Of a stretch of DNA of 64,000 bases, positions 32,200 through 63,197 are shown piece after piece. The first letter of the stretch is position 1. Each line of letters starts with the position of its first letter. The notes beneath the pieces are model-generated. The model searched no databases and had not been told where the DNA came from. It worked only from the letters and a program-made list of their open reading frames with translations. The position numbers and the translations under genes were made by a program. Origin of the DNA: Cenococcum geophilum (Eukaryota); the NCBI GenBank assembly GCA_050273025.1, contig CP158635.1, positions 4,712,001-4,776,000 of the forward strand, in the 5' to 3' direction.

Positions 32200-33870
32200 A
32201 AACTTTATATACTACTCCTTATTCTTAATTAAATTTAATATTACTTTTCCGTTACTATACTAGCCATAGCTGTCTTCTATAAGGCTATAATACTGCTTAA
32301 ATTATATAAATAACTTATTAGATTTAAACCTTTCTGGCCTAGGCTTGCTGGTTCCTATATTTAGGATAAAGTAGTATACTAGGGCGGAGGATATATATTC
32401 TACTAAATTTAACGAACTTAGCTAGTTCTAAAAGTTAAATTAGCAAATATTATAGTAGTAGTAGGGCCCTAGATTTTCTAGCTTACTCTAGGGCTTTCCC
32501 TTTAAGATAGACTTAGTGGACTAGTCTAGCCTACTTTAGAGCTCTCTATTTAGGATAGACTTAGTAAACTAGTCTAGCCTACTCTAGAGCTCTCCCTTTA
32601 AGATAGACTTAGTAGATTAAATAGTATAGCCTAGCTTACCAATAAATAGCCTAAGTTAATAATCGCGTCAGTTTTGTTGTTGTTAAGGCTTATAAGGAAC
32701 CTCTCTCTTACATTATTACTTAGATCCGCTATAAGGTTATTAAGGTCATCTTTATATAGGTCCTTAATAATTTCTATAGTTAATTAATCCGGTATTAGGC
32801 CCGTAGCATATTTAATAACTACGGGCTAAAGCCGCAGCTAGATTTTAGATTGCCATTTTCTAGATATCTGGTTCTAGCTGCCTAAGAGGTTAGCATAGGC
32901 TTCTATAATGGGTTAGAGAATAATAATAGGTAGTAAAACACCGGATATATACTAACCGCTAATAATAGTGCTATAAAAGTTATCTATTTCCTTAAACCTA
33001 GTTCTATACTCCCTAATTATATAATATATTACTATTAAAATAAAAGTAATAATATTACCGGTAAGCTTTTTAAATATATTATAAGAGTAGGGTAATTAGG
33101 TAAGGCTGTTTCTTCCTCTACCGTAAAATATACTAGCTATGCTAGCAACTATTGCGTTAGAACGGAAGCGGTTATTACTTGGCTATTAACTCTTATTAGC
33201 ATTTTATTAAATAGCACAGGCAAAATACCTTTATATAATCTAGCGCAATAAAATTATAATTAGTTAGTAGTTCCACGATTAGTTTAGGCACGTTGTTAAA
33301 CCCTAGCCTATATACCTCCCTTACAACTATACAAGCCTTTATAATTGTGTAGTTCCTAAAGTTCCCTATTACGTTAAATAGCTATATATAATATTAAGAT
33401 TATTAGTAAATAATTTAATATAATATTTTTAGTATATAGATACCTTATAAGCGGATACCGGGTTAGGAATATAATTAGCTTTTTTTTATACTGCTTTTAG
33501 CTGCTTTAAAATAGCTTCTAACTATGCCTTTTTTATTATATCCTTAATAAGGCCTAGAAAGCGGTCGAACTATAGGTTAATAAGATACCCGTTATAAGTC
33601 CTAGAGTTAGTTACTAGCCTTACTAGTAAAATGGACCTATAAAGCGCAAATATGGGCTTATATCTCTTAGGTAGGTTTTCTTTTATACATCGCCATTATA
33701 ATGTCTAGAGGTACTCTTTTCTTGCCTATATTGCGGTAGTTAGGTTAAAATCGTTATAGTCTAACTCGTCCTTACTTTCCCTAGTACTATTTAGGTCCCC
33801 TTTAGATTAAACACTAGATTAGTATACTCTATATTAGAGGGAGGTTACTTATTTTATGGACGAAGCTATA
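32200..33870 (-). pseudogene. RIP-degraded ORF of unknown function in X (cargo 1)
   Basis: Long minus-strand frame starting MASSM-like at ~33870 with stops mostly RIP-type; acidic N-terminal stretch; 48-bp tandem repeat (x3) at ~32480-32620. No family recognised; boundaries approximate. Confidence 0.35.
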
Positions 33871-34199
33871 TTAGGGTTTAGGTAAATACGGCTTACTAGA
33901 GAGAATATAAAGCTAAATATTGGTTATTTACGCAATAAGGTTTAGATTAGGCGCGTAGGAGAGTATTTTAAACTAGTATGCAATTGTTTATGCGGTAAGG
34001 TACGGATTGGGCGCGTAGGAGAGTATTTTAAACTAATACGCAATCGTTAAGAGCCGGAGGTATATTGCGAAGATGCTGCTTTTTATAGCGGTGGGCGGTT
34101 AGATAGTAAAGAGAGTGTTTTATTTACTAGGGCTCGCCAAGTGCTAAATAGTAGAGGAGACTATTAAGTATTGCAGTTAGACTCTGGTTATGTATAAAG

Positions 34200-36760: not shown

Positions 36761-37399
36761 TTGCCTAGTAGGAGCCGTTTTGTTTATTTAACGCGTCGCG
36801 TTATGGCTATAGCGCTAGGCAAGCTATTTAATATATTTAGTATGTAGGTTTTTAGGTAAACCTAGAAACACAGATAGGAATTCATTAGAGATTTTATTTA
36901 ATATTTGCCGTATTTATACCTTACTTATAAGGGAGCGTAGTAGCTATTTAAGGAGCCCGCGCGTCGACATTTTAATTTTAACATCATAGTAGATCGTATT
37001 GTATTATTCGTTTATAAGCCCTAGATCTCGCTTAAGAGTGTCTTTAGTATTATAGCTTAGGTCTATTATTAGTGCTATAATTCTAGAAGCGTTAGGGGAG
37101 GTATAGTAGGAAAGACGTCTTAATTACGCGCTAAGACCGATGTATAGAATTATATAGATAGGTATATTGTTTAGTTATTATATAAAACAATTGGTTAAAT
37201 GTCTTATAAGAAATAAATAAGCGTATTAGCAAACACTTCTTCACCCGCTACACCACCCAGACTTATAACCTCCTATCCCTTTTACATCTCCGTCTATAAG
37301 CTTAATTCAGCACCCAGATTTGTTAATACTTTTTTTTTATATATTTTTTATATATTCATTATATTATACTATATATAATAATGCGCATACAGCCTCTAG

Positions 37400-38600
37400 G
37401 CTATAGTGCTATAGTTCTATATACATAAATCCTTTCTAGGCAGCTTAATATATACTAGTAACTATATTTACCAATACTTTAAGACGCCTAGTCAGTCCAT
37501 AACTAGTAAAGCCTAGTTAGCACAATTAGAGGTCCCAACCTCCACTAAAATACTTAATATCCCTAATAAGGGCTAGAATATCATTAGCGAAAATAAAGAT
37601 ATTCTACTGTAAGTTAATAAGATCTTAGGTCTATATAGCTCGATAAAGGAGTATCTAAGCTCTTAATACAATCTTTTAAGAGAAGATATAATTAAACCGT
37701 TAAGAGAGGTAGTAGGTTAAATTAGAGCAGACCCTTTTTAGTTTACTAGAATCTAGATATAGTAATAGAGTCAGTATATATAAATAGGTAAGCATGCTAT
37801 AATTCTAAAGCAGTCATCCCCTAATATCTGCAAGGTCTATACTAACTCAGTAATATTTTCACCTTAAGGGCTAGTAATCTGCGTGGCGTTCTCACTTAGG
37901 AGAGTAAGGAAGATAATCTATTAGAATTAGTTAAAAAGACTAATCGCCGGGTCTCTAGTTGCTTTAACTCCTAAGATTAATAATTTTCAAACAAAATATA
38001 TACTTATAATAGTGGCGGCAAGACTATTAGCCGTATTAGAACAGAATCCCCTAGAGGTTAACTTATTCTTTAAGACCTAAAGATATTAAGATTGACTTAT
38101 CCGTATTATAGACAATAGTTAAGGAACAAACTAGATTTTACGAAGTTAGTTACTATACTATATTGGCATTATAAAAGCTAATAAGAGAGCCGTAAGTGTG
38201 TAATGTTTTTTAAATAAGAAGATATCTAACCACCAATAGATTCCCGTTATTAGAATACCTTGTTTAAGTTTAATAAAATATTAAAGCACTATAATATGTT
38301 ATAAATAAGCCTTATACGGATCTTAGTTTAATTATAGCTATTAAGGATACTTCCTTATTTAAGAATATTTACATTCTTAAAGACTGGTTAGATATAACTA
38401 CTATAGGGCTTAATAAATCTCAAGCCACTATACTAAAACGAGTTCTTATAAAGCGTCTTGCAATAATCTAAAGACCTCTAGGCACTAGAAAAACGTAGCT
38501 TTAAAGGCATTACTCAGCAATATAACAATAGGAGATCCCCCTGTTATTGTTATATGTTATATAAACCATACACTAGACTAGTTCTTTAGGTATATTGCTT
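37400..38600 (+). pseudogene. Intron-containing 5' fragment of an Hrr1/SAD-3/ZNFX1-family SF1 (UPF1-like) RNA helicase, RIP-mutated
   Basis: YNLLREDxIxPLREVV (~37670-37715); VAFSLRRV..W..SKRLIAGSLVALTP (~37885-37972); AARxLxxLEQNPxEVxLF; EP|FPLSEHLV across intron 38192-38239; a second intron at 37788-37834; Walker A LAIIQGPPGTGKT (~38457-38496, RIP-reverted); motif Ia DPPVIVxCYTNHALDQF (~38533-38585). Ends before motif II. Confidence 0.85.
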
Positions 38601-38769
38601 AAAGTAATATATACTTTATAAAATTTCCTAGTACTTCTAACCGTCTTAATACTATCGCTTATACGGATAGACGATATTACACTATATTAGGCGCCAGGGC
38701 CGTAGAAGTAGGAAGAAGAGAAAGCGTTAGGGCTCCCTCTTTTTATATCTTATATTTTATTTTTTTATA

Positions 38770-39140
38770 TTATCTCATATTGTCCTACCATTGTCCTGCC
38801 ATTGTGTCATATTGTCCTATATTATCCCATATTATCCTACCATTATATTACATTGTCCTGCTATTATATCACATTGTCCTACTATTATATCACATTGTCC
38901 TGCCATTGTGTTACATTGTCCTGCCATTATATTATATTGTCCTGCCATTATATCATATTGTCCTATTATCGCCCTACCATTATATTATATTGTCCTGACA
39001 TTATCCTACTATTGTCCTACTATTGTATCATATTGTCCTGTCATTGTCCTACCATTATGTTATATTATTCTGTTATTATCCTGCCATTATATTATATTAT
39101 CCTATCATTGTCTTATATTGTCCTGCTATTGTCTTAGTAC
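38770..39140. repeat. ~21-bp minisatellite (ATTGTCCTGCCATTATATCAC-like)
   Basis: Visible periodicity; source of spurious ORFs 38780-39210. Confidence 0.9.
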
Positions 39141-40214
39141 TGCTATATACTTTTTACCATTTACTAAGATTATAGTTATAGGTATTTATCGGCCAGGATC
39201 CGGGCAGTAACTCTTGGCAGTAATTTTACTACCTAAATCTCTTATAGATTAATCGATTGGCGTAGAGCCGTTACATTATAGTAAAGCTATATCTAAGCAA
39301 TCTATATCGTAATCCTTGGCATAATATTACACATAGAAATATTTAATCGTTAGATTTAGGAAGGTGTTTATATTTTAATTAAATTTATAAAACTATAACT
39401 AAGGGCCTTTACAGCGCAGTGGTATGGTAAGTTCTATAATCGCTTTAGTTTAGGGTTGCTCAGTCACTATAGGAAAGTCGTAATACTTAGCATAGTGTTA
39501 AACTTAAGGTACCTCGCCACTGTAGTGGTAGAGACATAGCAGATTAACTACTTACTAAAATATAGCGCCCCCGTTGCTGTAGTAGCCACTGCAGTAACAG
39601 AGATACCCCATATTTATAAATTTAGATTCTATATACGGTATAGCTTGCGAATTTAACACGCTTGCCGATCTAGAGGAGCTTTTAGATTAGAAAGTCGCTA
39701 GATTAACCGAATAATCGCGTTAGAATTAGATTTGAGCTTTAGCTTAGATATATTCTACGGCCTTTAAATTTAATCTAAAGTCGCAACCAAATATTCCCTA
39801 AGATTTAATACAGGGATCTCTCCCTAAGGATCTGGTTTGATCGTAAGGTTTAGAAAGGGGTTATAATTTAGTTAAATTTATAAAATCACATTCTAAAGTC
39901 CTTATAGCGTAGTGGTATAGTGCGTTCTACCTCTTACTATAATTTAGAGCTAGCCTAACGTAATTAAAACTCGACGTAGAAGAGCCGATATGCTTAGTAT
40001 ATAGTGCTGAGATTTCGTTAAATATATAACTTTAGGCGTTGCAGGATACGTATAAAAATACGAGCTCAATTTAGAGCCTTACTAACGCCTAATTTAATAG
40101 AAAACGACCTTCTTTTTTAATATTTTTAATATTTTTAATGCGCGATAAGTGGGAATTAAACCTGCCACGCCTGGGAGTTAAATACGCGACGTCCAATTGC
40201 TCAATCTGGCTAGG

Positions 40215-40450
40215 AGGCTCAGCGGCAATATAATAGGGCTCGATGACATAATAAGGCTCAACAGCGATACAATAAGACTCGGCAATATGATGAGACTTAA
40301 TAATATAATGAGGCTCGGCAACGTAATAAGGCTTAGCGATATAATAAGACTTAACAATGCAATAAGGCTCGGCAACGTAATAAAGCTTAGCGGTAATGCA
40401 ATAAAACTTAATAATATAATAAGTCTTAGCAACGTAATAAGGCTCAGGGC
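40215..40450. repeat. 18/21-bp minisatellite (AATAAGGCTCGGCAACGT-like)
   Basis: Visible periodicity; source of spurious ORFs 40089-40460. Confidence 0.9.
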
Positions 40451-41529
40451 CGGGCAATAAGGGGAAGATTTAAGGTTGCTTGGTTACTAATACCTAATAG
40501 CAAAATCTAACGGTATAGTACTACTATTGAGGTATTCTAATACGGGTAGGTTATATAAAGGTTTCGTCCGTAATATATCTAACATATCCCAAAAGTCTAC
40601 CTTTTGCTTATCTTTAAGGTTAAATTTCTAGCCTGTAATAAATTAAATGTTATAGTTAGTAAGAGCATAATAAATAACAGCATATTTTGCCCTGTTGTTC
40701 TTAAAACCGTTAAATACAAAGTAGTAGGTAGTCTATTAACTTATATCTATTAGTGCCGGCTAATAAAGTGCCTTTAAAACATACTAATATTAATAATAGC
40801 CCTTTTATTTTACAGCATAATAAGCTTAATAGCAACAGGGTTTCGGTCCTTATAATTAAGCATATTTATCTAGCGGAGCCAGGTTTACCAATTATTCTAG
40901 TCAGCATTATGTTATAGGTTAATTTAATATCTTATACCAATAAAAAAAGGCAGGAGGCAGATTAAATAAAATAATTAGGATACGCTTTTCTTTGCCATTA
41001 GGGATTTCGTATAGACGTCATATAGTGTATAGGTAGGAGCTGGTAGTCGTTAAGACGTTATAGGCAGTAGTGAAAGTTTTACACGGGATAGTAAGATCTC
41101 GAAAACCACTACTAACGGTTCCCCCTTATAGCAGACAACTACGTATATGCGCTATAACTGTGCAATTAGTAGACAAAAGCGGTAGTTATAAACGTCAGTT
41201 TGTCTGTTCTAATGCCGTCTTACTTTTTATAACAATTTAAAATATAGAGGGAGCTTTAGTTACAGGATGATCCTCTTACGTACTAATTAGGCTTTTAGAA
41301 TAATAAAGATGGCATATATATATAGTCTGTTAGTAGAAAGGATACACCTTAATAAGAATTATTAATATATATTAGGAACGAGAGTTAGTAGGGTTATAGG
41401 CTAGATTACTTAATAGGTATTAAGGTAGTTAGTAGCCGGAGTAATATTAATCTAAACAAAATTTAAACTTTTTAAGGTTTAGTTAGTTATAAGGTAGTTA
41501 ATACTAAGATAATATATTACAAAATATTA

Positions 41530-44500
41530 AATAGTTGTATATTGTCTATATATATATACATTATACTAAGACATACTCTTATTATAGGGGGTCGCTGCTC
41601 TAACTGCACTAGCTATACTATTTCCATTATATCATCATTAGCCTACTAAGTAGGTTGGGCTTTAAATACTTCATAGAACTTATTAATCGTTATCCTTTTA
41701 GTTATTATACGCCTCGCTAATATAACCATATTAATTAGGTTCCACTTATCCGTACTATACGTTATTAACGCAGTAACTACTAGCGCTAGCTGTCTAGATC
41801 TAGCAGCTTAGCCGAATACTTACACCTCTATATTTACTATTATCGCCAGTTTAAGCAAATGGACTCTATACATAGAGACTAAATTTAAACCCTCTCCTCT
41901 AACTCTTTAGTTAATAATAAGAAACTAGACTATGTTATTCTAGTAAGGACCGCCTATTAGAATACGAAACGCTTTATAGATATCCTCCTGGTCTTTTAGG
42001 GATATCCTAAACTCTATCTAGCAAATAGTCGAATATTTAGACTGGCCGAGCCTTTTATAGAAATACTATATTATATTATTAGTAACAGTTTACCACTAGT
42101 CTAATAGCTAACTTATAAGGCGTAATAGCGTATATACCGCTAGTTCGTAACTGCTAAACAGTAGTCTCTTATTAGGATTCCTTTTAAGTACTTTATTAAT
42201 GTATTTTATAATTCCATTTAGTTTCCCAGAGTTAGTAATTATACTTTAATTCTTCTAAAGTGGATTCTTATCTAAAGGTTTATCCTATTTTTCACTACGG
42301 AACTTATTAACTATCTACCTCGGCTTTATTCTAACTTTTGTTTTATCCTTCTACTACGCATCCTACCACTTATCTCCTACCTTAGCCAGGCTTAGAAAGA
42401 TAGTAAAAATTTTTAATAAGCGACCGGCTCCCTCTAGAAATTAATCCATATTAAAGACGGGTTCTTCTCCTTTTCTTTCTTTAGCTTTCTAGTGTCTAAA
42501 AGCTTTATTTAGCTGTTTAAAAGCTTTTAAAGATGCTCCACGCCAGAGCTTCTTAATATACGGTTTAAATATTAAATTATTTATTATATAGCAGTCTTGG
42601 TAGATAACTAGTAGTAGCTTATTAATTACTCTCCTATTAAACCATTGGTCTTCCCCTATCCTGCGTATAATTAAGACCTTTATAATTAAAAAGGAGCATT
42701 CTTTAAAGCCTATAATAACCTTATTTAAAAAAGAAGAGTAATTAGCTACTCCTAGCTTTTTATATTTAATTAACGCTTTAATATTATAATTATTAATTAA
42801 TTTTACATTTGGGGAATCCGTCTAATTAGGGGCCCTAAAAATTTCTAAGGCGGGAATTAGACTTATAAAACCTTCGCTAGTTAGCGTACTGGAAGTAAAC
42901 ACTACTAAAGGTTAAGAGGTGTAGTAGGTTATTTTACTATTGCTGTCCTTATAAGACTGGCCCAGGCGTTAAAAGTAAGGAAATACTACTTAATCATTAT
43001 ATACTTGTTTAGCGATTTTTATTAAATAACCTGTCTCTAACCTGTCTATATAGAACTTATCGGTAAAAATCCCACTAACGATATAACGAGGACCACCGTC
43101 TCTATGGAGATTAAAAATAGTTTTATACTGTTCCTAAGCGGTTTAGGTTATTACCTAAGTTTATAAGGTTATAATTATAAGATACAAAGCCAATCTTAGA
43201 TCTATTTTCCACTAAACCACTTTACCTTCTCCTTTATATTTTATAGGTTTAAGAATATCCCTATCTTTATCCGTAAAATTGTACTTCTTTATACTAGACC
43301 TAATAAAAGCCGTATAGCGCACGCGGACTTATAGTTTACCTTTAGGAATAAAATTATTTAGTTCTAAGGTCTTAAACCATAATTTAACGTCTTCAACCGC
43401 TTAGGGTAGTAGATTCTGTCTAGTAATGTATATAGTTAGTCCTACTAGCCGGTTAAGAAATTTTCTAGCAATACTTCCCTTAATACAACAGCACTGTAGC
43501 ATGCCATCCATTTAACTTAGGCATTAGGCGTTAGGCGGCTGCGGGTATTTATTTATACTAGGGGTAAGATAAAGACTTTCATCTCTACCTTTTTAATTTT
43601 TCCAATTAAGCCAGTTAAGGTTAATCTTGGTTATTAATACGCCAGTATACCAGATTAAAAGCATTTAAAGTATCTTACCTAAACCTATTATATCCGCAAA
43701 AAAGGTCCCACTTAGGGTTATACAATTAAAAAGAGTATAGGTAACACTAAGCAGCTAATATATTTATATAGCTTTACCCTTTTTTATACCGTATAAGTGG
43801 AAGGTTACGTCTTAAAGAGTGTTGCAAATAGTTAACGGAAACGAGAGGAACTATAGCGCCTTTACCCATAATATTGGGTTGATATATACTTCTCGCACGT
43901 CCTTTAGGTAATTAACTTCCTAATTAACCTCCTTAATTTTATCCTTATGTTTATCTTCCGGTTCCTTATTAGTCGAAATAGGGTTAATTAAGGCGTTAAA
44001 GTGGCGGCGCTCCTATATATGGTTAAGATTAATTTCCCTAATACAAATTAGGTTAGGGTTATTATTTATATCCTTAAATAATATATCGATAAACATTTCG
44101 CGATTAAACTTTAGCTATTTATTATACCATCCTTTCATTTCATCCCATAGCATTATCTTAAATGTTTATACTTTGTCTAGATCCATGCCTTTTAAAAGCT
44201 CTAATTTATCTAGTAGGGGCTAGTCTTTACTACTACGGGTCCAGCTATAAGCAGTTTTAATTATAGCTAGCCATATAGCTAATAATGCATTAGTAGGTAT
44301 AGGTGGCGTAGACTTTAGGGTTAATATAGGCTTTAGATTTAACTGCTTAGATATAAGTGGCGTGGACTTTAGGGTTAACTACTTATAACTACTTTAACCT
44401 AGAACAGGTATGTCTGTTCTTCTCCTAGTTAGCACCGGTCGTGCAATATTAAAGTTAGAGTTAGACTTAGAATTACTCTTATTAAATCTTGTACCTATAA

Positions 44501-45407
44501 ACGTACGTTAGATAACTCTATATAATATTATACAATCTTATAAATTATAAAGTCTCTTACGCTTTATAATCCGATTGGGATCTTTAACTCTAATTATAAT
44601 TATATTAAGTCCGGCCTTCTTTATAAAAAGCACTATAAATACTAGGTTTATATAGTTAAGAATTAGTGTACTAGTAGTTAGATCTACTATAGTCCAGCCA
44701 TCCCTATATTTATCCGCCAAGAAGTTTTCACTTATCGCGGCCTATAGCTTGTTATATCCATAGTAATATATATTAATTTTCTCTGAAGAATCAGATAATA
44801 GATGCTTATGCTCAGTTTTTAATGCGAATCCGTATAGAATGGGGGCCCTAGTAAATGGCGTTTTATCTAGGTAACTATATACAGCAAAGCTCATTTTATA
44901 GAATAGTATAGGTATAGTATTTGGCTATTATAGGGCTTTAATAGACAGATTACCGAGTACCTAGGTAGCCTTAGAGGTTGCCCTTAATCTAAATAAGTTA
45001 ATAGACTGCTCTCTAGAAGACAAGGCGCCACGCTTTTAAATAGCATTAGTTATTATAACCTCCACGCCTCTACGTCTATTGGTCATTACGTATTACTATA
45101 TAGATTTTTTGGCGGCAATAGCGAAAGCTTTAAACTCTAATAGTAGATTGGATCTCTTAAACACGTGCCCATACTTAGTATCGAGAAGGTCAAAGACTAT
45201 ACGCTTAACTCCATTTTGTATAGGTCTAGACGTTAGCAACCTACCGCTAAACGCTTTATTAATTTCGCTAGTACAGTATTAGAGGATTTCGCTATATGTT
45301 TTTTCGTTAATTATAAGTCCTTACTACAGCTTTAGACCACTTATTTGCGATAAGTTCTTATTAGTTATAGTAGTTAAGTACTAACTAGATTCTAAATATA
45401 GCGCCAT
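41530..45407 (-). pseudogene. SNF2-family (SF2) helicase/ATPase cargo gene of P, RIP-inactivated
   Basis: Minus strand: motif I GTFFADxMGLGK(T)L (~43670-43710); degenerate motif II/III region (GHLIKN-like ~43015-43035, FLTxTPG ~42960-42985); motif V GEGLNL..V(H)LLEP (~41850-41898); motif VI QVFG(R)AARSGQ (~41790-41823). Candidate ATG at 45407. Confidence 0.8.
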
Positions 45408-45889
45408 TATTATAGTTAGGGACCCTATATATTTATAAGCGGGTAAAAGCTTAATATAGAATAGTATAGAGTAACTTATAAAGATAGTAGAGCGGATAAT
45501 ATATTAGATAATTAGCAATAATATAACAAAATAATCCTAACAGTTATAATAAGAAGGTGTGCTAATAGTGTTAACTTAAGATAATAGCGGATGCTAATAA
45601 GAGCGATTTAAAAGTGATGCGAGAAATAGAACGGAATATAAGTCTTAATATAAGAAGTAAGATAAGATACAAGCTTTAATATAGGCAGTAGAATAAAATA
45701 TAAGACTTAGAGTAAAAAACGGAACAAAAGGTGCGTAGCAAAATAAGATATAAGATTTGCGCTACTAACTAAGTAAATAACAATAAAAGAGCTAATAATT
45801 CTATTCTTTATATTATAACTAGTTAGTAAAGCAGCTCTAGAGAGGTAGGGAAATAAGTTTAGAACAATCTAAGATATTAAAAAATGTTT

Positions 45890-46183
45890 AAGATTGTACG
45901 AAAAAGTAAAATATAATATGGTATTTTATTCCGTAAGTGTAAGGTAAGGTAAAATGCATAGTAAAGAGAGGTAGGGGGATAATCCAAGACATTATAAAAG
46001 GTCCAAGATTGTATAAAAAAAAGTGAAATATAATATAGTATTTTATCCTACAAGTGCAAGATAAGGTAAAGTGCATAGTAAAAAGAGGTAGGGGGATAAT
46101 CTAAGACATTATAAAAAGTCTAAGATTATATAAAATAAAGTAAAATATAATATGGTATTTTATCCCATAAGCGTAAGATAAGG
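45890..46183. repeat. ~120-bp tandem repeat (about 2.5 copies) in the divergent intergenic region of P
   Basis: AAGATTGTA…GGTAGGGGGATAATC…CATTATAAAA unit recurs at ~45890, ~46005 and ~46122. Confidence 0.85.
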
Positions 46184-46647
46184 CTTTAGGATACCCTTTT
46201 ACCTAAAGTACAACCCATTTTTAAGCTATATCACTAATAAAGCAACTTTTTTTTAGGTAAGCTGTTACGTCTACTACACAAGTAACCTAAAACTAGTATC
46301 CTAGATCCTACTTATAGCTACTACACCTCATATTAAAGATATTCGCTAGACTTATTTATATATAGGTCCCGTAGTCCAAATTACATATTAAGCTATCTAC
46401 AACACAGCTATTGTCACTCTAGCCCTATAATACCGTACTCTCATTTATGCGCCTTTTTTTTCTATTTCCTGCCATTATCCGCTTAATCTTTTAAACTTCC
46501 ATAGCCGCCTAAACCAATACTACAGCCTCTTTGTCTTCAAAAACACAACTATATTAAGCTTAGCTCAGCCTTAATTTCTCTTTAAAAATACGGCTACGTT
46601 AAGCTTACCTCGGCCTTAATTTCTCTAAACACACACTACCTAGAAAT

Positions 46648-47443
46648 ATATCCCGCCTTACACGACTACCATAAGCTCTACCTATAATATAGCGTCTAGT
46701 GCCCTAGCGCAGAGCAGGCTCTCTTAAAAGCCGCATTATAATACCTTCTAGAGACTAAACACCTAAAGCTTCTTTAGCCGCTATAAATAAGGGAGATGCC
46801 AATATATAGATCGACAGTGGTATACTAGGTGGAGATAGCCCTAATCTTCGCGAGCTAGGGTAGGATATTAAGGTCAAGCTAGCCGATCTATAGACTAACC
46901 TAAATAACCCATTCTTTTCTGCTAAATCATTCGAAGAGCTCTAACTATATTTTAGCTCTCTGCACCCTAGTAGTATATAGGCTCGTGCTAATATATCTAT
47001 TTAACAGGAAACTAGAGGTGTTAAAAGGAATTCTAAAAATAAACTTTTAAAAGCTATTAAAGATAAGCAGTTAGCCTACGAGACACGGGCTTTCTATTTA
47101 GTTACTTCGCGGGCTTTAAATCATCTATATTATTACTAATACCCATTATCCAGCCTAACCCTTTAGCGTTACCCTAATAACAAATATAAGACTTCCAGGC
47201 GGCAGCTTAAGTTAAATATTAGTTAGAACTCTATATACCTAAGACCGGATGTTATAGTTCTAAGTGCTAACTTATTCAGTTATCTTAACTTAACTAGCAC
47301 TACCTTTAATCCTCCCTTTTTTCTTACTATGGCTTATATAGAAACAACGGAATTATAGGTCCGAATAGCTAATATTATCAGGCTCTGTAACATTAATAGT
47401 AAATAATATCTTCGCTATAGCTATAGTCCTATAGCCATCGCCT
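46648..47443 (+). pseudogene. Accessory ORF relic (~260 codons) upstream of the Plavaka transposase
   Basis: A single frame (SRLTRLP…IDSGILGGDSPNLRELG…) whose stops are RIP-type TAA/TAG; no family recognised. Confidence 0.4.
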
Positions 47444-47814
47444 AAGAATACTGTATATTGTTATTTAGACAAATAAAGGTTTTTTAGGTACTATTAAGTC
47501 TTTAGTTTATAGTTTAGCTACTTTAGACTCTTTTAAGTCCTTAAACTTGGTGTTAAGCTCAGTATTAAGCTAGTCACACTTATACTTTAGCGTCTAGTTT
47601 AGTTGCCTTAGACTCTTAAGTCCTTAAACTTAGTATTAAGCTAGTTATACTTGCGCTTTAACATAACTAGTTCTAGCGAGAAAATAAGAGGTATACTCTT
47701 AGTAGCTATAAAGCTAAGCCACTTAGATTAAATACTAGCAATTAACCGTTAGTACTATAACACGCACTCTTTACACCTAGAAATAATACCACATTGTTTA
47801 ATATATAATTAGCG

Positions 47815-50800
47815 ATAATATAGCGGAGCTATCTATAGTGTTTTTATACCCCCAAGAGTTACAGCGGCCTTTACCGACACCTACGGTGCTATAAAAGGCG
47901 GCTACCTAGCCACTAACACGTCTACAAAAAAACACGTAAAAAGAGATACAACACTTACACGTTTATTACGGCCCAACTACTCATAATTCGCGATTAATTC
48001 TACCACTCTAACTAGTTAGATAACACGCAATTACAACTAGATGGTATAAATACGGATACTAATAAGTACGCTCTAGTAGCGGTAGAATATGAGTAGAATG
48101 CCCACCTAGTGCCTCTATACAGTATACTACATTAAAAAAGCGTCCTATTGTTATTATTATTACTTAAAGTAAAGACATTTAAAGCAACTAAGAATATAAA
48201 GGCAGGTAAACCAATTTCATGCAAGACCAATAATAATATATAGTAAGTTAACTAGATAATTTTAGATATTACTATATAATAACACAATAATAGCTAAAGT
48301 ATACTATACAATCCTTTTTATTCAGAGTTTAATTACGCCTTTTTAATATAGCTGTACCGCATTTGCTGCATAAAGGGAGACGTTAACGCACTACTTAAAG
48401 ACACCCGCCTTAGCCCACTTTATAGCCTACTTAGCTTTTAATCTATAAATTAATAGGAGGAACTAATTACCGCTATTTTATTTAGCATATAAGATAAACA
48501 ATAGCTCCAATTAGAGTATAAGATAGAATTAAATATTAAAGGCTCTAAGCAGAGGAAATACTATATTCTTTACTAGGATATTATAAATATAATTACCTTT
48601 CTAATTAGCTATTGACCCTTTAAAGATACACTAGCATATACACTAAAGAGACTCTATAATACCGACAACCACTAAGTCTATAATAAGCTATACAGCGGTA
48701 ACTAGTAGTAGGAGATATAAGGCAAGGTTCCTAGCGGTGCTATAGTAGTTCCTATACTTATAGCAGTTAATAAGACCTAGCTAATAATACACTATGGCGA
48801 TAAATCGGCCTGGCCGGTATATCTTACTATTAGTAATCTTAACCAACAAGTTTAACGCCAACAAACATCCCCTATAAATATTCTTATCGGTTTTATACCA
48901 GTTATTAAAGAAAAGGATAATAATATAAAAAGTAAAGCATATTATAAGGCGATAAGAACTATACTTAAATATAAGTCCTACTTTAGTATTCTAACGCTAT
49001 ATTCTATAAACTAAAATATAATAGCAATTAAGCATCTTACAGAAAGCGGCATAGACCTTTAATATGCGGATAATTTTATGCGATAATGTTATCTAATTAT
49101 ATATAGAATAATAGCAGACTATAAAGAACAAGTGCTGCTTATAGGTATTAAAAGCCAACAGCACTGCACTATATGCTAGGTCCCCCCTTTAAAGCGTAAA
49201 AACTTAACCAAGAAATAATACCCACTATACACCCATAAGGAGACGAGAAGATAAATTAAACGCCAGCAACTAGAGAACATTCTTCTATCCTTAAATAACT
49301 AGGTACACCCAGTAAAATATTTCGCGTAGCACCATCGCCTATTTAACATCTATAAGGGTATAATAGTAGATGTTCTATATTAGCTTCTAAAGGGTATCAT
49401 TATATGACTTATTAAATGGGTACGGAAACTGGTAGACGATGTCATCTAGCTAAAAAGAAAGAGAAGAGGGATAAAGACAACTATAACAAATATATCTGCG
49501 GAGGCTTAGCTTAATTAGCGTTTTAAACAAATCCTGGCTTTTATAGGGCTAAAACGGTTTAATAATCTATTATTTAGTAAAGTTACTTAATAGACAGGTA
49601 ATAAACAAAAAGCTATAGTTCGTCAACTTATTACTATACTAGCCCTACTACTATCGTCTAGGGAACTATATACTATACATTTTACAAAAGCCGTATACAA
49701 CTTCGTTATTATAGCTTAGTATTATACCTATAATAAGGAGACACTATAATATATACACTACGCCCTATATTAAATTAATATACTTAAAGGCGTATTTTAA
49801 AGTTTCCGTTTAAAGGCAAAGGATTCTAATACGGGCCATTTTAATATACTAAAATTCCATGCCCTTATATATTTTAAGGAAAATATCCGCCTATACAGAT
49901 GCGTAAATAGGTACTACACTAGCGTAAATAGCGAAGCTAGACACCGTTACATTATTAAGGCGTTTTATAACTTAATAAATAAACGGGATTTGCTATCTCA
50001 AATCTACTCTTATAATTTAAGACGGGTAGTAGTACTAGTAATAGAAAACGAAATAGCTTTCACAAATAGTAATTCTGTACTATAGTCTTCCCAGCGTCTA
50101 GAGGTATAGGTTACTTAACTAATATAGCATTTAGCAGTTATAAAGCTTTAGTGGCCTTTAAAAGATATAAATAGGGCAACAGATCTTATCTAGAGGCGTC
50201 TTAAGTTAAAGACGTGGCTTTATATATCTTATATAGTAAACTGCTACGAAATCCCAGGGTTTCTAGACGGTATTACAGTATTTATCTAAAAGTGTAGGCA
50301 AAAACTACAAGGTAAACGTGCCTAGAACTTTAATATAGACCAGAAAGAGAAGGATCCTTTATAGGTTAAGCGCCTACTTATTAAAATATATCCATCTATC
50401 CGCTATTAAAAACGAGACGGAAAAAATACAACCAACCTTAAGGCCTAAATTAGTGAGGTAGTACGTTGCACACTAGATTGGCAATATTCTAACTAGTAAA
50501 GGCGTAATTATATATAGGTTTAAGAGTATATAGATAACGACGACCGTATTAGAAAGGGCCGCATACCGTTAGGTGGAAGACTTATAGGCTAGCTTCAGCT
50601 AATTGTTACTATTCTAGATATTAAAAGGTTAGATAAGTACGGTGTATACGTATAATATACTAGAGCTATAGTAGAGCTACTTTAGCCATTAAATCATAGA
50701 CTGCCGCATCTAATATACAGCATGGTTAAGGTAAAAAGGTAGCCGCGCTTAAGTGTAAATACTAGGCAAGTACTTGGAGGTGGTCGCTTTTATTTAATGC

Positions 50801-50970
50801 CATCTATTCTATAAAGCGCGCATATTGTTCCAGCCACTACTTCTTATCCAGATTTATACTATATCAATAATTATATTAATTAGGACCAATATAATACTCT
50901 ATACTCAGACAACTTTCTTAAAAAAGAAACCCGCATCGCGTTATTATATAAAAGCTAGGATAAATAGTAA
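47815..50970 (+). pseudogene. Plavaka transposase, RIP-inactivated
   Basis: N-terminal C2H2-like CxxC…LYRHLRCH (~47830-47893); VPILxAxDKT…GDKSAWPVYLTI(G)NL (~48748-48840); LIGFIP; IADYxEQVLLxGIK…HCTICxVP (~49111-49185); VDVLHQLLKG (~49365-49395); HFNIPKFHAL (~49837-49866); HIVPA…YYINNYIxWDQYNTLY (~50820-50902). Confidence 0.9.
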
Positions 50971-50994
50971 AAGTAGCTAAGCTAGTATAGAACC

Positions 50995-51500
50995 TATATA
51001 AGACTATATAGGACTATATAAGATTGTATAAGATTATATAAGATTATATAAGATTATATAAGATTATATAAAATTATTTTAATCCTAATATATATTATAA
51101 GCTAGCATACTATAGGCTAAGAAAATAATAAAAATTCATTTGCGTAATTAGCATACAACTTTAAAATAATATATTACATTACCTTAATTGTATGTCAAGG
51201 AATATGCAGTTAGCTTTTAAAGTTATTAAGTTAGTTAACTGCGTATTATTTAAATTTTAAGTTGGTTAATTACATGTTAAGGAATATGCAGTTAGCTTTT
51301 AAAGTTGTTAAGTAGGTTAACTACGTATTATTTAACTTTTAAATATATTAAGTTGGTTAATTGCGTATTAAATTAGTTAAGTTACATATTAAGTTAGTTA
51401 ATTGCGTATTAAGTTGGTTAAGTTATATATTAAGTTAGTCAATTGCGTATTAAGTTAGTTAATTACGTGTCGAGTTAGTTAAATTGCATGTCAATTACGC
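50995..51500. repeat. Subterminal repeats of P: 10-bp AAGATTATAT array (~50995-51080) and ~20-bp AAGTTAGTTAATTGCGTATT array (~51170-51500)
   Basis: Directly visible tandem units just inside the right TIR, as expected for CMC elements. Confidence 0.85.
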
Positions 51501-54500
51501 GAAACGCGAAAAATAAAGTCTACTTAAATCTTATCCTGTAAATATTTTCCCAATGCAATACGTTTTAGCAAGGGTACTATAATCTCTCTTAGTATAATTA
51601 GGGTCTAAACCCCCTTAGGGTATATCACCTTTTATGTCGTTTCTATAAATACCCCGTTTCTATTTTATATTAAAGATATAAATAAATTAGGCGTTAAGCT
51701 TAATAACCTTAAGGATATACTTATTTAGGGAGATAATTAGGTGCCCGTTATACGCAAGTAGGGTCACCCTTAGTTGCTCCTTTATTAACTAAAAAAGAGT
51801 ATTACTTAAAGCTACCTAACTAAGTTAGAGTTACGTCAACTATACCGTCGTTTTAGCCACCTATCTATTTATTAATTGCTTAAAGTTCTTTAGCAAGTAG
51901 GCTATAAAGTTAAGGTTAAGGCAATTAAGCATCTTATAAAGTACTATTATTACTACTAAATAAACCAGAAGTCCCCTAGCCGATTTAAGTTTACCCTTAA
52001 AGATAACTACGACTTTAACTTCTATATTATCGTTAACGTTATATATCTTAGCGGCAAGCTAGTACTCTAAGTTATTAACTTCTTAACCTTTTTTTAAGCC
52101 GTACGATTCTTAAAGGATATATTAGCTAGGAACGCATAGGATACCCTTTAATTATACTAGATTAATGTCTACCTAGGACCCCCTAATTAAATTATCTATA
52201 ACGTAGGAAAGAACTTCTTATCTATAGAGTTTTGATAATAGATAAAGGCAATAGCAATTAAGGTTAAGGAAGTTCCTATTAAGGTATATAATAGCGTCGG
52301 AAAAGTAGAGCAATATTATACGTTATTACGCCGCGTATATAAGATTATCTCTTTAAAACTAGAGGATGCTAGCAAAGAACTTACCTTATAAATAGCTATT
52401 AAAGCTATTAATAATTCCGCTGGCCTAGATGGACTTATACCTATATTACTAGTCTTTAGCGCCTACCCTTAAATAACTAACAATTCTCTACTATCTCCCT
52501 CCGTCGTGCAATAAGCTAAGGCTATTCGTAAGGCAATAAAGGAGGTGTAATGTCTCTACGCTATAGGCTAGGTTAATAATATACTAGGAATAAGAAATGG
52601 CCTAAATACTTTAACTACGCTTAATCTACCACTTTAGTCTAAGGTACGCGTATAGCGTAAAAAGGGAGGATAGTTAGGCCTATATTAACTTATTATAATT
52701 AATAGTTAAACTTATACTATTTAAATGCCTTATGGACCCACTTAATTCTATTTAACTATTATTAAGCCTTACTATAAAGATAACAGTTCTAAGCCTTTAT
52801 AAGATGCTATAGAAGATACCCTAAAGGAGAGCTACAATTAACGTGCTTTAGAAGGCGACCATAATTCTAATATAATTATAGTAGATAAGCCGCAACTATA
52901 ACGCGGTAGAGGTCGCCTAAAGGGATTACGAAATTACTAACATCTTATTAATTTTAAAAAGCAATTAATTGCTGCCATTAAGAATAGAGTTAAGCTATTA
53001 ATGGCCTTTATAACAGCTAAGAAAAAGGCTAACTTTAAACTTGTAAAATAGCTTTAAAAGGAAGGTTGTATTATAACTTTAGAAGCTCCTTTCTAAGTAT
53101 CTAATAAGTAGGAGATTTATAGCCTTATCGCAAGAGAAGTCTTTAAATTTAAGAAGTATGACCCTACTAAATTCGATAGAGTCCGCATCTTTAAGTTAAG
53201 AATAGTTAATAAGATTAAGGGCAAAGCTACTAACGCCCTATTTAAGAAATTAAGGCTTATTATCTAAGGCTACAACGACAATAGTAAGGAGGTAATTCTT
53301 ATATAATCTCCCACGATTTAACGAGCTAGTTAGCGAGTTATTATTATACTAGCTCCCTCCCTAATAAAGAATAGAATAGCGGTCTACCTATAAGATATTA
53401 CTTAGGCCTATACCTAATTAGAGACGCACCTTTAGCGCTTAATATTAGCATACCTTCTAGAGCAAATTCGCTACTAGTATCCTAAGGATACGATTATAGT
53501 TATACTTAAGCTATTATATAGAATCGCAGAGGTAGGAACTTACTAGTGGGCTACCTATAGCAAGCACTATAAAGAGAAGCTTTTAATAACTACTTCTATA
53601 TTCGATCCCTGCTTCCTTATTATAACTATAGAAACTCTATTTAGAATTGTTAGCATATAAACTAATAATATAATTATCTTAGGAGACAACTAATTCTTAG
53701 CTCTTAAAGAGGATAAGCTAGTAAAGGTAAATCTTATAGTAAAGCTAAAGGAAAAGCTTAATTTAACAATACTATTACTCTTTAATAGATGCATCCTCTC
53801 CCTAAATAAGGATTCTATTACTTTACGCTAGAAGGGTTAAGGTAAGAAGATTAACGTTATTAACATTAATTCCCTAAAGCAAGGATATGTGGAGTAACGC
53901 GCTTGCGGAGCTTATATTGCTTCTATCTATTAACCTAAGGCTTTATTTAATCTCTTTATTGCCGCCTAATACTAGGAACTAATTAAGGATAATATTTTTA
54001 CCCTAAATAAACGTCTTTCCTAGTAAATAAACTATCTTAACTAGGGACTACTCTATATACCTATTAATCTTCCTACCGCTAAGCTCTTTATATTTATTAA
54101 TAGATCGTTTATAAATAATAAAGATTTTAGCTCCTAGTTACGGTATAAGATTATTATTATAAACAAATTTACTAGAGAGAATGACTTTATAATTTATGGC
54201 AATCTTATCTATTAGAGCTTAACTAAGAGTAAGCGCATTACCCGAAGTATTTTAGCGTTAGAGATATATAAAATAGTTGGCGGAGTTAATATAGTAATTA
54301 TAATTAGAACTACCCTAAAGATAATTATAGATCGGCTCGAACTTCCCGTTATCCCTATAATTATATATACCGACTTATATTCCCTCTATAAGTATTTAGT
54401 TAAGCTTAGTACTATAAAGGAAAAGCGTCTTATAATCGATATTATGGCACTTTAGCAATCCTATAAGCGTTAAGAACTCTTTAAGATTTAATGGATTAAT

Positions 54501-54835
54501 AGCTAAGATAACTTAGTAGATATAATAATAAAGGCGAACCTAAATAAGGTACTAGAGACGTTTGTTAATATAAATACTTTATATATATAAGTTAAAGGTT
54601 AGGTTAAAAGGGAGTCCCTAGAAATTTCTTAGTTATATAAGGTCTTAAGATATCTAGGAACTTTAACCGGCGATTAAAGTTATTTAATTAGTTAGATTCT
54701 CTTACTAAGACTTTTTAGGGAGGGGGGAGTATAACATTTTATAGACCCTAACTTAACCTAGCTAATTAGGATTTTCTATCCCCGGGATAGAAAATCGCTA
54801 TTGGCTTGCTTATTACTAGCGCCTTAGCGGCCCTC

Positions 54836-57800
54836 TATTACGAACGCTTTAAGTACGATGTTATAACTACTTAGAGAAGAGTTAAAAGAAGCTAGTTAGT
54901 TAATTCAAGCACGGTCTAGGATAAAGCCGATAGAGCTATATAACGAGGAATGGTAACCAAGGTCATATAGGGTAATCTGTATAATCTATAGGATCTATAT
55001 AATCCGTAACGGAGCAGATAAAGCATACGTACATCATATACAAGAAGGATTTTATAGGAGTACGGTTGTGTATTTAAGGACCCTTAATCCCTACCTAGAC
55101 AGTTCCTTCCTTATAGTAATTCTCAGAATACAATTAGAGTTAATTTATTAGGCAACCACTCCACCAGTTATTATTACGTTGTTAACTTTTATACTTACAT
55201 TTTTTATACACCTAGCCTAATAACAAGCCCACCGTAGTTCCTACTATAAGGTTCCGTTATACAATCACTACTATAGTTACAGTATTAAATATAGAAAGTC
55301 GAATAATATGCTACTAAAAGCACTAGCTATAACGCCATTAACGGCGGCAACTACTTCGAGATTAGGCAACGACACTAGTATAGCAGACACTAACTTATAG
55401 CAACTAGTAACGGTCGGACAACTATAAGAGATAGTTGACTAGTTAACAGAAAATAATGCGACGTTAGAAAATAGGATTAATGGGATAGGCGTAGTAAAGG
55501 TTAAGTTACTATTAATCGAAAGGTACTTAGGAGAGAGATTAAAGCTTAAAGGATTCCTTATATAAATGCACTTTAAGGTAATATAGGAAGGAGTAAAGCT
55601 GGCAACACCTATAGATCAAATAGCCTATATAGGACTATTCTTAATAGGAAGGGCACTTAAGTGGTTTAAGCCTTACCTTACCAAGATATAAGCGAATGGC
55701 ATAATAACTACTAACTAAGAGGTACGGTTTATATTCTTAAGCTAGAATAGATTTATAGAACGACTTACACAAATATTTAGAGACCTGGAGGCAGTAACTA
55801 TGGCGGAAAGAAAACTCCAAGACATTATATAATAAACCTTAGCAATTAAGTATATAACGCAATTCTAGACGTTATTAATATAAGTAGAGTGGAATAATAG
55901 GGCGCTTATAGTATAGTATAAGCAAGGACTTAAGGCTAAAGTCTAGGACGCGATTATCCTAATGGAAGATGCGGACACCCTAAGGGAACTAATAGATTAG
56001 GCGATTAAGATTAATAATTAGATCTACTAAAGGGAATAGGCTAAGAAAGGCTAGGATAGAGTTCTATAGTTATATAAGGCGTAAGGTACGCAACGGTAAA
56101 AGCTAAGTTAGAAACTATGGTATAGCGCAGAGCTAATAGACCTAAGTGGTACTAGAGAAGCCTATAAGAGATAGGGTAAGAAACTATAAAAACCCAAAGG
56201 ACAAGAATTAAGTAATTAAAGGTCTAAGGAGCAGAGGCTAAACTAGGGATCTTAGTAGTAAAAGACGTTTAGGCGGACTCTATAGCAAGAAAAATGGTTT
56301 AAAGAAGAAGCTTATATAAATTACGGAAAATAGGGTTATTACGTTAGAGACTATAGAAGTAGGTAAAGTTACTACGTAGTAAAAGGGATAAGACTAGCAG
56401 ACAATATATATGTATAGAGGGACGACAATATGCTATAAGGAATAAAAGAATGTTTAATTAAAAGTTTTACATTCTGTTATAATAACGCATGCCAAATTTA
56501 TAAGGACGCTAAGTATGGTGCAAGCTATTAGCTATAGGAGCTATTACTTATAGAATATAGAGGAACCAATAAACTAGTTCGCAGATCGGATATTAAGGAT
56601 AATAACTTTAACGTAGGTAAAATATTTCATAACAATAAGGCAACGAAAGCGGCTTACTAGGGGCGCGCAGACCTTAGAGATATTATACCAGAGGTAGAGG
56701 ATAATTCCACTATAGAATAGGGAACATTAGTAGGGATTAAGACCCCACTAGACACGATATCTATCGCTTTACAAGACGTAAGAGAAGTAGGATAGCGAAC
56801 TACTTTGGCACTTAATAAAGGCAAAAGGCTAAAAGCTTAAGACTCTTATAATAAGATGTAAGATGACTAAGATTCTTAAGATAAGATAAGGCAAGCTTAA
56901 GGACCTATAATAGATAATAACCGATAGAGCAGAGCAACGGCTTAGTTTACTAGTAATATATAAATAAGCTTAGGACGAAGTTTCCTAAAGATATAAGACT
57001 CTTAAGACGAGATAAGTGAGATTTAAAACTCTTAAGACGAGATAAGAACACTAAGTAAGCCTAGTTAGACTAAGGCTAGAGTAAAGCTTAAGATAGAAGC
57101 AAGCTTAGAATTAAGAATCTAAAGGGGTTAAGAATTCGGAGTATAAATAAAGACACCTATAAACAGGAAACAAGAGGCTTTCTTATAGATTAGAGAATTT
57201 ATAACGTAAACAGTAATTAGATTAGGAGACGAATATATAAACCTAGAAGACTTACTAGTAAAACACGGCGTTTAGACTAAAGATTAAAAAGTTAATACTA
57301 AGATTAAGAAGTATAAAGACTTTAAGGATTTAAGCGCAAGACGCAAACTAAAAGAAACTATAGAAGAATTTAGATAGAGAATTATTGTATAGTAAGAACA
57401 GAAACTAGATAAGAGATCTAGTATATTAGGACGTATAAGGGACAGAGCGCTAGTATAAAGAATTACTAATAGGCCTAGGGTAGGCACATTAAGAGCTAAG
57501 TGGCTTACTAAACTAGAAGATAAAGAGGATCTAGGAATCCCTACTAGGTTCAAAAAACGATATATAAAAGGCTGTTATAATATAGTAATAAGAAGATACT
57601 TCCTTACGGACAAGCCGTATATACTCTAGTAGCTATACTAAAAGTAGTATAGACAACGACATAACGATAAGTGGGAAGATTTCTATATGTGGTTGGATAA
57701 GAAAGTTATCTAGGACCACCTAATTACAAAAAAGACTATGACTTACATTAAGGGAGCCTTAATTATAACGTTAAAGGATCTAAAAGAGCGTTTAGAGGAC

Positions 57801-62810: not shown

Positions 62811-63197
62811 CCCTCTAAAAAAGATACTTATCTATAACTCCTAAGTAAGAGAGCACTACGTGCTAAGAGGTAAATTTTGGGACAGCGAGACTTATATTAT
62901 AATAGTAATAGTAAGTAAGGAGGATTTATATTTATTATAATAGTTAAGCAGTATTTATATATAGATGGCAACTATAAAAAAAGAGTTGCTAGTGTTAGGA
63001 ATAAGGCAAGTTGCTGTTACGTATAGTAAACTGCCGTCACGTGATGGCAAGTTGCTATCACGTGTCGCCGCGGCACTAGCGTGGCGAGGAGCCTTAAGTT
63101 CCTCGCCCTCCCTTATTCTATTAATAAGCTTTTTAACTAATATTACTGTAACCTACTTAAGTAGTCGTTATTAGTAAGTTACTTTATATAACTAATA

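Follow-up and report, generated by a model that had tools for sequence, protein, structure and literature searches.

A RIP-killed 20-kb Plavaka-type transposon of Cenococcum geophilum that probably carried an SNF2-like gene

A 64-kb window of the Cenococcum geophilum genome (64,000 nucleotides; GenBank assembly GCA_050273025.1, contig CP158635.1, positions 4,712,001 to 4,776,000) contains the decayed remains of a large mobile element. The explanation we favor, and consider probable, is that positions 31570–51555 are a cut-and-paste transposon of the Plavaka group, about 20 kb long, which was killed by repeat-induced point mutation (RIP) and retains three gene relics, including one for an SNF2-like motor. 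The structure of the element and the linkage of its parts are well supported. All coordinates given here are positions in the 64-kb window, and L001 and similar labels denote related metagenome loci. The following features define the element.

31570–51555, plus strand: whole element, a RIP-inactivated giant Plavaka-type DNA transposon of 19,986 bp, bounded by the limits of homology in related copies.
31570–31583, plus strand: left terminal inverted repeat, TATCGGCAAAATAT in the window and CATCGGCAAAATAT in L033; the window copy starts TATCGG, one RIP change.
51542–51555, minus strand: right terminal inverted repeat, with reverse complement CATTGGGAAAATAT in the window and CATCGGGAAAATAT in most copies.
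31568–31569 (TA, left) and 51556–51557 (CA, right), no strand: candidate 2-bp target-site duplication (TSD), TA/TA in L001.

The ends were placed by BLASTN of window positions 30001–58000 against the metagenome loci. On the right, 12 loci cease to align at 51554–51560 despite having 1.5–3.4 kb of their own DNA beyond this point. Fifteen loci and the window share the right terminus ...GAATATTTTCC[C/T][G/A]AT[G/A] (a stop also written ...TTTTCCCGATG), followed by a different flank in each, and the true right end is therefore 51555. On the left, homology with L001 ceases at 31568, with 908 bases of its own DNA remaining, and a second left end, in L033, begins at 31571; the flanks of the window, L001 and L033 differ. 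A foreign repeat (window 31298–31567) terminates at 31567–31569 in L005, L029 and L040. Colinearity reaches 31605–32145 in five other loci (L002, L015, L019, L024 and L032) and 33.6–33.9 kb in L006 and L011, in each case the limit of the 10-kb flank. The left end rests on L001, L033 and the window.

Both ends carry 14-bp inverted repeats, 5'-CATCGG[C/G]AAAATAT...ATATTTTCCCGATG-3'. A RIP-tolerant form of this terminal motif has only two matches in the window, at 31570 (plus) and 51555 (minus), and hence none internally between the genes; in L001 it matches both ends, 19,752 bp apart. When the window was scanned in a RIP-tolerant manner for a partner of the right end, the true left end was merely one among several candidates, and it was the copies that settled its position. 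The candidate TSD of the window, TA/CA, shows one RIP-type difference.

A metagenome scan with a protein query in which stops were read as X returned 49 loci, many of them on contigs of 20–100 kb. Diverged relatives, with 57–63% identity, were found in other samples (L041, L043–L046), and contig pieces with a likeness of at least 80% numbered in the tens of thousands across four public runs. Linkage was counted in the 30 loci that extend from the beginning of the SNF2-like gene through 3.9 kb or more of upstream DNA. In 22 of these 30, the Plavaka gene lies on the strand opposite the SNF2-like gene; 2.7–3.4 kb separate it from the aligned portion of that gene in 21 loci, and 9.3 kb in the remaining one. 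These 22 copies, together with the defined ends and unrelated flanks, bear out the original prediction that the two genes are divergent and were amplified as one unit. Across 37.6–50.9 kb, summed depth, which is not to be equated with copy number, is even in three of these public runs and uneven in the fourth, X21, with no step at 41261. Depth in X21 is low at 37.6–38.9 kb and at 45.9–47.1 kb.

RIP has affected all parts of the element, as had been claimed. From 4001 to 64000 the window is AT-rich (GC content, 0.24–0.40), and its dinucleotide signature of RIP is uniform over this range (TpA/ApT, 1.33–1.95; (CpA+TpG)/(ApC+GpT), 0.22–0.71). All 49 loci are likewise RIP-damaged, the SNF2-like frame having 3.2–8.0 stops per 100 codons. 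For RIP reversal, C was given preference over T, and G over A, at every position where two or more copies retain them, with ∼15–25 copies available; this procedure raised the GC content from 0.325 to 0.446. A clear opening after reversal was limited to the SNF2-like and Plavaka frames.

The first of these frames to be considered is that of the transposase.

47818–50964, plus strand: Plavaka DDE-type transposase gene relic, ∼1,049 codons, from a candidate start at 47818 to the end of the open frame at 50964.

The presence of a Plavaka transposase, part of the original prediction, was confirmed with PF18759, which matches 48526–49422 on the plus strand at E values of 1.8e-41 and 2.7e-42 when stops are read as X. 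The corresponding scores, 142.9 and 145.6 bits, compare with a cut-off of 26.3, and the match spans profile positions 33–325 of 325. RIP reversal lowers the number of stops in this frame from 64 to 12 in 967 codons. The Plavaka group was reportedly first described by Iyer et al. in 2014.

On the other side of a spacer lies the SNF2-like gene, with the following parts.

41613–45410, minus strand: SNF2-like ATPase gene relic, ∼1,240 codons, a low-stop frame.
44495–44560, minus strand: probable 66-nt spliceosomal intron with GTAAGA ... CTAAC ... CAG signals.
43668–43715, minus strand: helicase motif I region, LSGTFFADIIGLGKIL in the window and LADIIGLGKTL in other copies, read by eye.
41790–42230, minus strand: C-terminal helicase lobe, with block IV at 42111–42230, motif V at 41880–41924 and motif VI at 41790–41822.

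Stops are far rarer in this minus-strand frame, from ∼45400 to 41600, than in the other frames, and upon RIP reversal they decrease from 49 to 8 in 979 codons. The terminal codon of the gene, 41613–41615, is a stop in 18 of 18 aligned copies. The intron is assigned because there is an in-frame stop in 18 of 18 copies and because the reading frame of every locus departs from that of the window at residues 222–227. Reading by eye, we find FADIIGLGKI at motif I of the window, plus a helicase-like C-terminus. Among 17 aligned copies, 7 keep GLGKT and the remainder have GLGKI, one C-to-T change away. The RIP-reversed reading contains GGTFLADTMGLGKTLQ, SGKL...KRLLFSSY, FLIINRRVRGEGLNL and QVFGRAARSGQ. 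The blocks are named here after helicase motifs I and IV–VI, and LADxxGLGKT and the SGKL..LLFSSY block are typical of SNF2 proteins. The motifs I, V and VI that had been called recognizable can indeed be read, the first in the copies with GLGKT and the other two in the RIP-reversed sequence.

To place this gene in a family, we relied mainly on its C-terminal part. A phmmer search of 1.84 billion representative sequences gave 56 matches at E ≤ 0.001, 36 of them at ≤ 1e-10, with lengths of 41–161 aa and identities of 33–84%. Ten of the 56 fragments were looked up, and these are singletons from contigs of 575–1104 bp. Judging by their sequences, the fragments are pieces of other mutated copies plus a few more distant relatives. 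Profile A2 was made from the C-terminal 170 residues of the window and nine fragments, three of them less mutated. When this profile was compared with the PDB, 32 of 32 matches at E ≤ 10 were members of the SNF2 family, four of them below 0.01. The best were Sulfolobus SNF2/Rad54 (1.5e-4 and 3.8e-4), ATRX (0.0065) and Fun30 (0.0088), followed by Chd1, ISWI, Rad5, Rad26, INO80, Snf2 and DDM1, and no other helicase family was among them. In the alignment of A2 fragments, distant relatives retain motifs V and VI.

A distant relative, P0045, which matches the SNF2-like query at E 1.2e-6, also matches six helicase models of PADLOC: HmaA ‘SNF2 helicase’ (1.1e-6), DpdE, ZorD, BrxHI and two DrmD models. 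HmaA and ZorD carry an SNF2-type label in PADLOC; the DrmD and DpdE models are SNF2-type as well, and BrxHI could not be classified. Pfam searches of the 56 related fragments returned nothing beyond a weak Helicase_C match in P0027, a phmmer search of the single window sequence against the PDB gave no match, and a PHROGs search gave nothing meaningful. The protein has an N-terminal part of ∼500 residues without a family and long insertions in the N-lobe. These sequence comparisons partly confirm SNF2 membership, with support confined to motif I and the C-lobe. The predicted minus-strand SNF2-like gene stands as regards its long frame, its C-lobe and its motif I, and does not as regards PF00176, which finds no match, and motifs II and III, which were not recognized.

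Just behind the stop codon of this gene, the window copy lacks ∼203 nt at 41254 that are present in nine copies and ∼377 nt at 41486 that are present in L001 and L002. Many metagenome contigs end at 41240–41490. The interval 41254–41486 seems either unstable or peculiar to certain sub-families.

A spacer of 2.4 kb separates the candidate start of the SNF2-like gene (45410) from that of the transposase gene (47818), and repeats occur both within this spacer and near the right end of the element.

45866–46183, no strand: 117-bp tandem repeat, 2.7 copies (Tandem Repeats Finder, 84% matches, score 468; also self-BLAST).
46600–47400, plus strand: region of the predicted ∼260-codon open reading frame; conserved intergenic DNA, not supported as a coding region.
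51184–51489, plus strand: right subterminal repeats of 20/41-bp units, with the core TTAAGTTAGTTAA occurring 10 times.

The 117-bp repeat corresponds to the ∼120-bp tandem repeats that had been reported for the spacer. The third open reading frame of ∼260 codons, which had also been placed there, is not supported as a gene: after RIP reversal, 5–6 stops remain in ∼267 codons, a neighboring frame is equal in this respect, and there is no family match. The subterminal core has 39 matches in the window, versus 22.9 expected, and 10 of them are clustered at 51226–51482.

The left arm of the element, about 10 kb that the original prediction overlooked, holds the third gene relic along with two tandem arrays.

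37500–38600, plus strand: ZNFX1-domain gene relic, with Pfam PF25396 at 37832–38077.
38789–39082, no strand: 21-nt tandem array (Tandem Repeats Finder).
40271–40444, no strand: array of 54-nt units (Tandem Repeats Finder).

A six-frame Pfam search of 28000–41000 found one domain, PF25396, at E 9e-12. This domain scores above the 27-bit cut-off in 11 of 11 copies. Its presence in L006 (5.8e-14) and in all nine further copies (1.7e-8 to 8.9e-15) indicates that the ZNFX1 domain belongs to the element. A TNHALDQ-like stretch lies downstream of the domain. Pfam searches in six frames of the window and L006 did not match a Upf1-like superfamily 1 (SF1) core (AAA_11/AAA_12), and 39.1–41.5 kb contained neither an open frame nor SF1 helicase motifs after RIP reversal. 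As no SF1 helicase core follows, the ZNFX1-type gene looks truncated, or else its remainder is beyond recognition. Pfam found no UBC domain in the window or in L006.

Several smaller observations concern the left arm. In the ZNFX1-type reading, all loci shift frame relative to the window at residues 110–117 (∼37736), which hints at a short intron or a private indel. Six loci (L009, L010, L015, L019, L024 and L032) contain a second, inverted piece of ∼200 nt at ∼15770–15977 in locus coordinates that resembles window 38140–38341, in the ZNFX1-type region. The start of the left arm in L006 (13601–15200) is GC-rich, unlike in other copies, and is probably a younger insertion of another element. 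On the minus strand, two stretches open after RIP reversal, 35682–36041 (120 codons) and 36197–36913 (239 codons), with no family match; from their sequence, the frames at 35682–36913 may represent a further cargo gene. The left flank at 38.9–41.3 kb was also considered as a separate, equally abundant repeat family, an idea that was rejected on the colinearity of the copies with the rest of the element.

How might such an element have worked? The transposase would have bound the ends and the subterminal repeats and mobilized the entire 20 kb, cargo included. Both divergent genes could have been expressed from the shared 2.4-kb spacer. The SNF2-like motor would have served the element, most likely by clearing or sliding nucleosomes at donor or target DNA or by countering heterochromatin or RNAi-type silencing. 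The silencing helicases SAD-3 of Neurospora and Hrr1 of fission yeast are members of the ZNFX1 family, and the ZNFX1-type piece may be part of the same anti-silencing kit. A burst would have produced near-identical copies, all of which RIP would then have destroyed, so that nothing in the element would work today. That the remodeler opened heterochromatin or resisted silencing is speculation on our part. It is a tentative proposal, too, that the copies represent an undescribed lineage of ∼20-kb transposons in RIP-competent fungi resembling the PlavakaB group, in which an SNF2-type motor and a ZNFX1-type module are selected cargo, opening chromatin when the element excises or integrates or weakening silencing by RNAi and heterochromatin; such a lineage would be the first cut-and-paste family known to bring its own remodeler.

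A number of observations weigh against these interpretations, some of them touching the element as a whole. The TSD can be checked in two copies only (the window and L001), and no empty site was seen among the matches listed, which are contig pieces from the four public runs. In 8 of the 30 loci counted for linkage, no Plavaka gene is found within the available flank, where homology ends early. Neither an intact copy nor a full-length intact relative was found in the 49 loci, a representative protein library and two word-index searches. Both genes lack an excess of transversions at third codon positions, although the sites are few, and the truncated look of the ZNFX1-type gene is consistent with passive capture.

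Other observations of this kind concern the SNF2-like gene. None of the six window frames matched the Pfam SNF2-rel_dom model (PF00176) at E ≤ 10, nor did any of 18 copies at E ≤ 5. RIP damage is a possible cause of this miss, yet the equally damaged transposase was detected easily. Helicase_C (PF00271) was found in 2 of 18 copies (best E, 0.047) and in fragment P0027 (E 0.058), all below the curated cut-off. The PDB yielded nothing relevant for profiles of the whole protein (A6, 18 copies), of its middle pieces (A4, A5) or of the stretch around motif I (A8), N-lobe included, the lone match of A4 being a G-protein-coupled receptor at E 0.25. Motifs II (DExH) and III (TGTP-like) were unrecognized in the RIP-reversed reading; a single motif II candidate, RVINK, possibly derived from RVIDE, lies ∼350 residues after motif I. 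AlphaFold2, run on the natural copy with the least damage and 21 aligned sequences, produced a useless model, with a mean predicted local distance difference test score (pLDDT) of 27.6 and a predicted template modeling score (pTM) of 0.17.

Against the favored explanation, it is possible that the cargo was passive, that is, that the SNF2-like gene and the ZNFX1-type piece are captured host genes or pieces of genes that were amplified with the element and never had a function for it. CACTA-type elements capture genes, and CACTA and Mutator elements pick up host DNA. The ZNFX1-type gene, cut short, with its domain in 11 of 11 copies and no helicase core, fits this possibility, as does the failure of the library and word-index searches to identify an intact relative. 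No sign of purifying selection was measured, and the copies, few transversions apart, appear to go back to one recent burst. Transversions were counted since RIP does not make them; those shared by at least two copies fall on the three codon positions as 18/27/25 in the SNF2-like gene and 4/2/3 in the Plavaka gene, too few sites in all. Since a third-position excess is absent, there is no evidence of selection keeping the cargo. By their sequences, the copies appear to derive from one burst, and transversions this few would not separate selected from passive cargo. Other features are less easily reconciled with passive carriage. The SNF2-like frame is full length (∼1,240 codons) and nearly open after RIP reversal, with the 8 stops in 979 codons noted above; it has an intron with good splice signals and a terminal stop shared by 18 of 18 copies; it stands head-to-head with the transposase over one spacer in 22 of 30 copies; and relatives at 57–63% identity exist, more distant ones retaining motifs V and VI.

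A different view would keep the minus-strand gene as real and assign it to another group of superfamily 2 helicases or P-loop proteins, with a C-lobe that merely resembles SNF2. The missing PF00176 match, the empty N-lobe profiles, the unrecognized motifs II and III and the long spacing of ∼350 residues between motif I and the motif II candidate would all be in line with this view. We nonetheless regard it as unlikely, given that the C-lobe matches in the PDB are SNF2-family proteins in 32 of 32 cases, with no other helicase family represented, that P0045 matches six helicase models, of which HmaA and ZorD are labeled SNF2-type, and that the LADxxGLGKT and SGKL..LLFSSY blocks are SNF2-typical.

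It is very improbable that the repeats are a host helicase-gene cluster spread by segmental duplication, with Plavaka merely adjacent. There is a precedent in X3X3R8, which is RIP-degraded, contains tandem Rad5/SNF2-like helicase genes and is read as an endogenous cluster (PMC3017866). The sharp, identical ends with inverted repeats and unrelated flanks in 15 right and 3 left copies speak against duplication of this sort, as do the matching 2-bp flanks in L001, the lack of internal ends between the genes and the equal gene order and spacing in 21 of 30 copies.

Least tenable of all is the element as first predicted, a three-gene unit of 10.3 kb between CACAGGATGA-type terminal inverted repeats at 41261 and 51540, the left of which is listed here as an internal site.

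41261–41270, plus strand: TACAGGATGA, the supposed left terminal inverted repeat; an internal site, whose partner at 51531–51540 lies 15 nt inside the true right end.

The TACAGGATGA site and its inverted partner are the only two perfect YACAGGATRA matches in the window, and the subterminal motif recurs in three weak copies at 41420–41501, yet matches with one mismatch are at chance level (14 versus 12.9 expected), 13 loci align in one piece across 41200–41320, and so through 41261, while nine more differ by the ∼203 extra nt at 41254, colinear homology continues to 31568, 15 loci end at 51555 and not 51540, summed depth shows no drop at 41261 in the four runs, and among the 49 loci none was seen to end at 41261 with unrelated flanks. 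The unit is instead the 19,986 bp of 31570–51555, with different inverted repeats.

The surroundings of the transposon are themselves rich in repeats. A second RIP-degraded repeat of ∼3.3 kb (51557–54835) starts directly after the right end of the element. It is present in three copies in the window, 88–89% identical, the others being at 15082–18315 and 18700–21648, with extra pieces at 54836–55262 and 62385–62811. Its summed depth in the four public runs is ∼40 times that of the Plavaka element, with a 40-fold jump at ∼51.58 kb. Just left of the element, at 30485–31152, is a tandem array of a 27-nt unit (24 copies; periods of 54 and 81 nt were also scored), which sits within another repeat (31298–31567) that recurs in L005, L029 and L040. 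The first 4 kb of the window are of normal composition and constitute its sole non-RIP part. At 324–827 and 1199–2743 they contain an intact ankyrin-repeat gene of 514 codons (Ank, E 8e-32) and a small open reading frame with a PigL_N-type domain (E 2e-6).

Transposons with anti-silencing genes are few, and each sheds light on the arms race of genomes with their parasites. Known cargo of this kind includes TET/JBP in fungal elements, a methylase/SET protein and an oxygenase in red-algal Plavaka, and the VANDAL anti-silencers. If our reading is true, chromatin remodeling and RNA-silencing helicases would join this list by way of the SNF2-type motor and the ZNFX1-type piece, and the element would give a handle on the passage of 20-kb DNA elements through chromatin. 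The weight of such a statement is limited by the fact that all copies are dead, that SNF2 membership is partly shown and that the functional roles are inferred. In practical terms, helicase-bearing repeat families in RIP-rich genomes may be mistaken for duplicated host clusters, and metagenome copies can fix the true ends of RIP-degraded elements.

Among helicases, the SNF2-like protein resembles SNF2 ATPases (PF00176 plus PF00271) in its C-terminal RecA-like lobe (blocks IV–VI) and in the LADxxGLGKT context of motif I. It is unlike them in the absence of a PF00176 match, the unrecognized motifs II and III, the N-lobe insertions, the family-less N-terminus of ∼500 residues and its location on a transposon. 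With ZNFX1-type helicases the element has the ZNFX1 domain in common, whereas the SF1 core was not found downstream. A published counterpart in terms of decay is X3X3R8 of Stagonospora (Parastagonospora) nodorum SN15 (Hane and Oliver 2010, PMC3017866), a RIP-degraded multi-copy repeat of a filamentous ascomycete in which RIP reversal reveals Rad5/SNF2-like helicases beside unknown open reading frames. Unlike the present element, X3X3R8 contains a Rad6-type ubiquitin-conjugating enzyme and was interpreted as a cluster of endogenous genes, a transposase or inverted repeats being unmentioned in the available sections; this comparison is by description only.

Two groups of Plavaka elements serve for comparison among transposons. 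According to Kojima 2025 (PMC12730594), PlavakaA elements have TGT..ACA ends and a 2-bp TSD, while PlavakaB elements of Agaricomycotina (CMCT clade) have CATCA..TGATG ends and a TSD of 2–3 bp, and some of them carry TET/JBP. Table S1 of that paper names neither a helicase nor SNF2. Our element shares with PlavakaB a PF18759 transposase, 5'-CATC/GATG-3' ends and a candidate 2-bp TSD, which is within the 2–3 bp described, and some PlavakaB members similarly bear an accessory gene directed against epigenetic silencing, a TET/JBP dioxygenase (PMC12730594). It differs in its CATCGG..CCGATG ends (15 right and 3 left), which match those of PlavakaB for four bases and depart from them at the fifth, in its cargo, an SNF2-like ATPase and a ZNFX1-domain gene instead of TET/JBP, and in its host, a RIP-competent fungus and hence presumably an ascomycete. 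Compared by ends and TSD only, the element appears closest to PlavakaB.

The giant Plavaka of the red alga Bostrychia, at 17–19 kb with accessory genes PAG1-3 (bioRxiv 10.1101/2025.02.11.637652), resembles our element in other ways, as far as the accessible portion of the preprint goes. Both are large (∼20 kb here), both have several accessory genes with a flavor of chromatin or DNA modification and tandem repeats adjacent to the cargo, and both were massively amplified and then decayed. The algal cargo, in contrast, consists of a DNA methylase/SET protein, a ParB-like 2OG oxygenase and an unknown protein, the host belongs to another kingdom, and no SNF2/ZNFX1-type cargo is reported in that portion, where SNF2 appears as host gene families only. 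Our search of the open-access literature found no description of a Plavaka element with SNF2-like cargo. Set beside these systems, the element is a giant PlavakaB-like transposon with helicase-type cargo, a cargo that appears to be undescribed for this transposon group, and it is dead in every copy seen.

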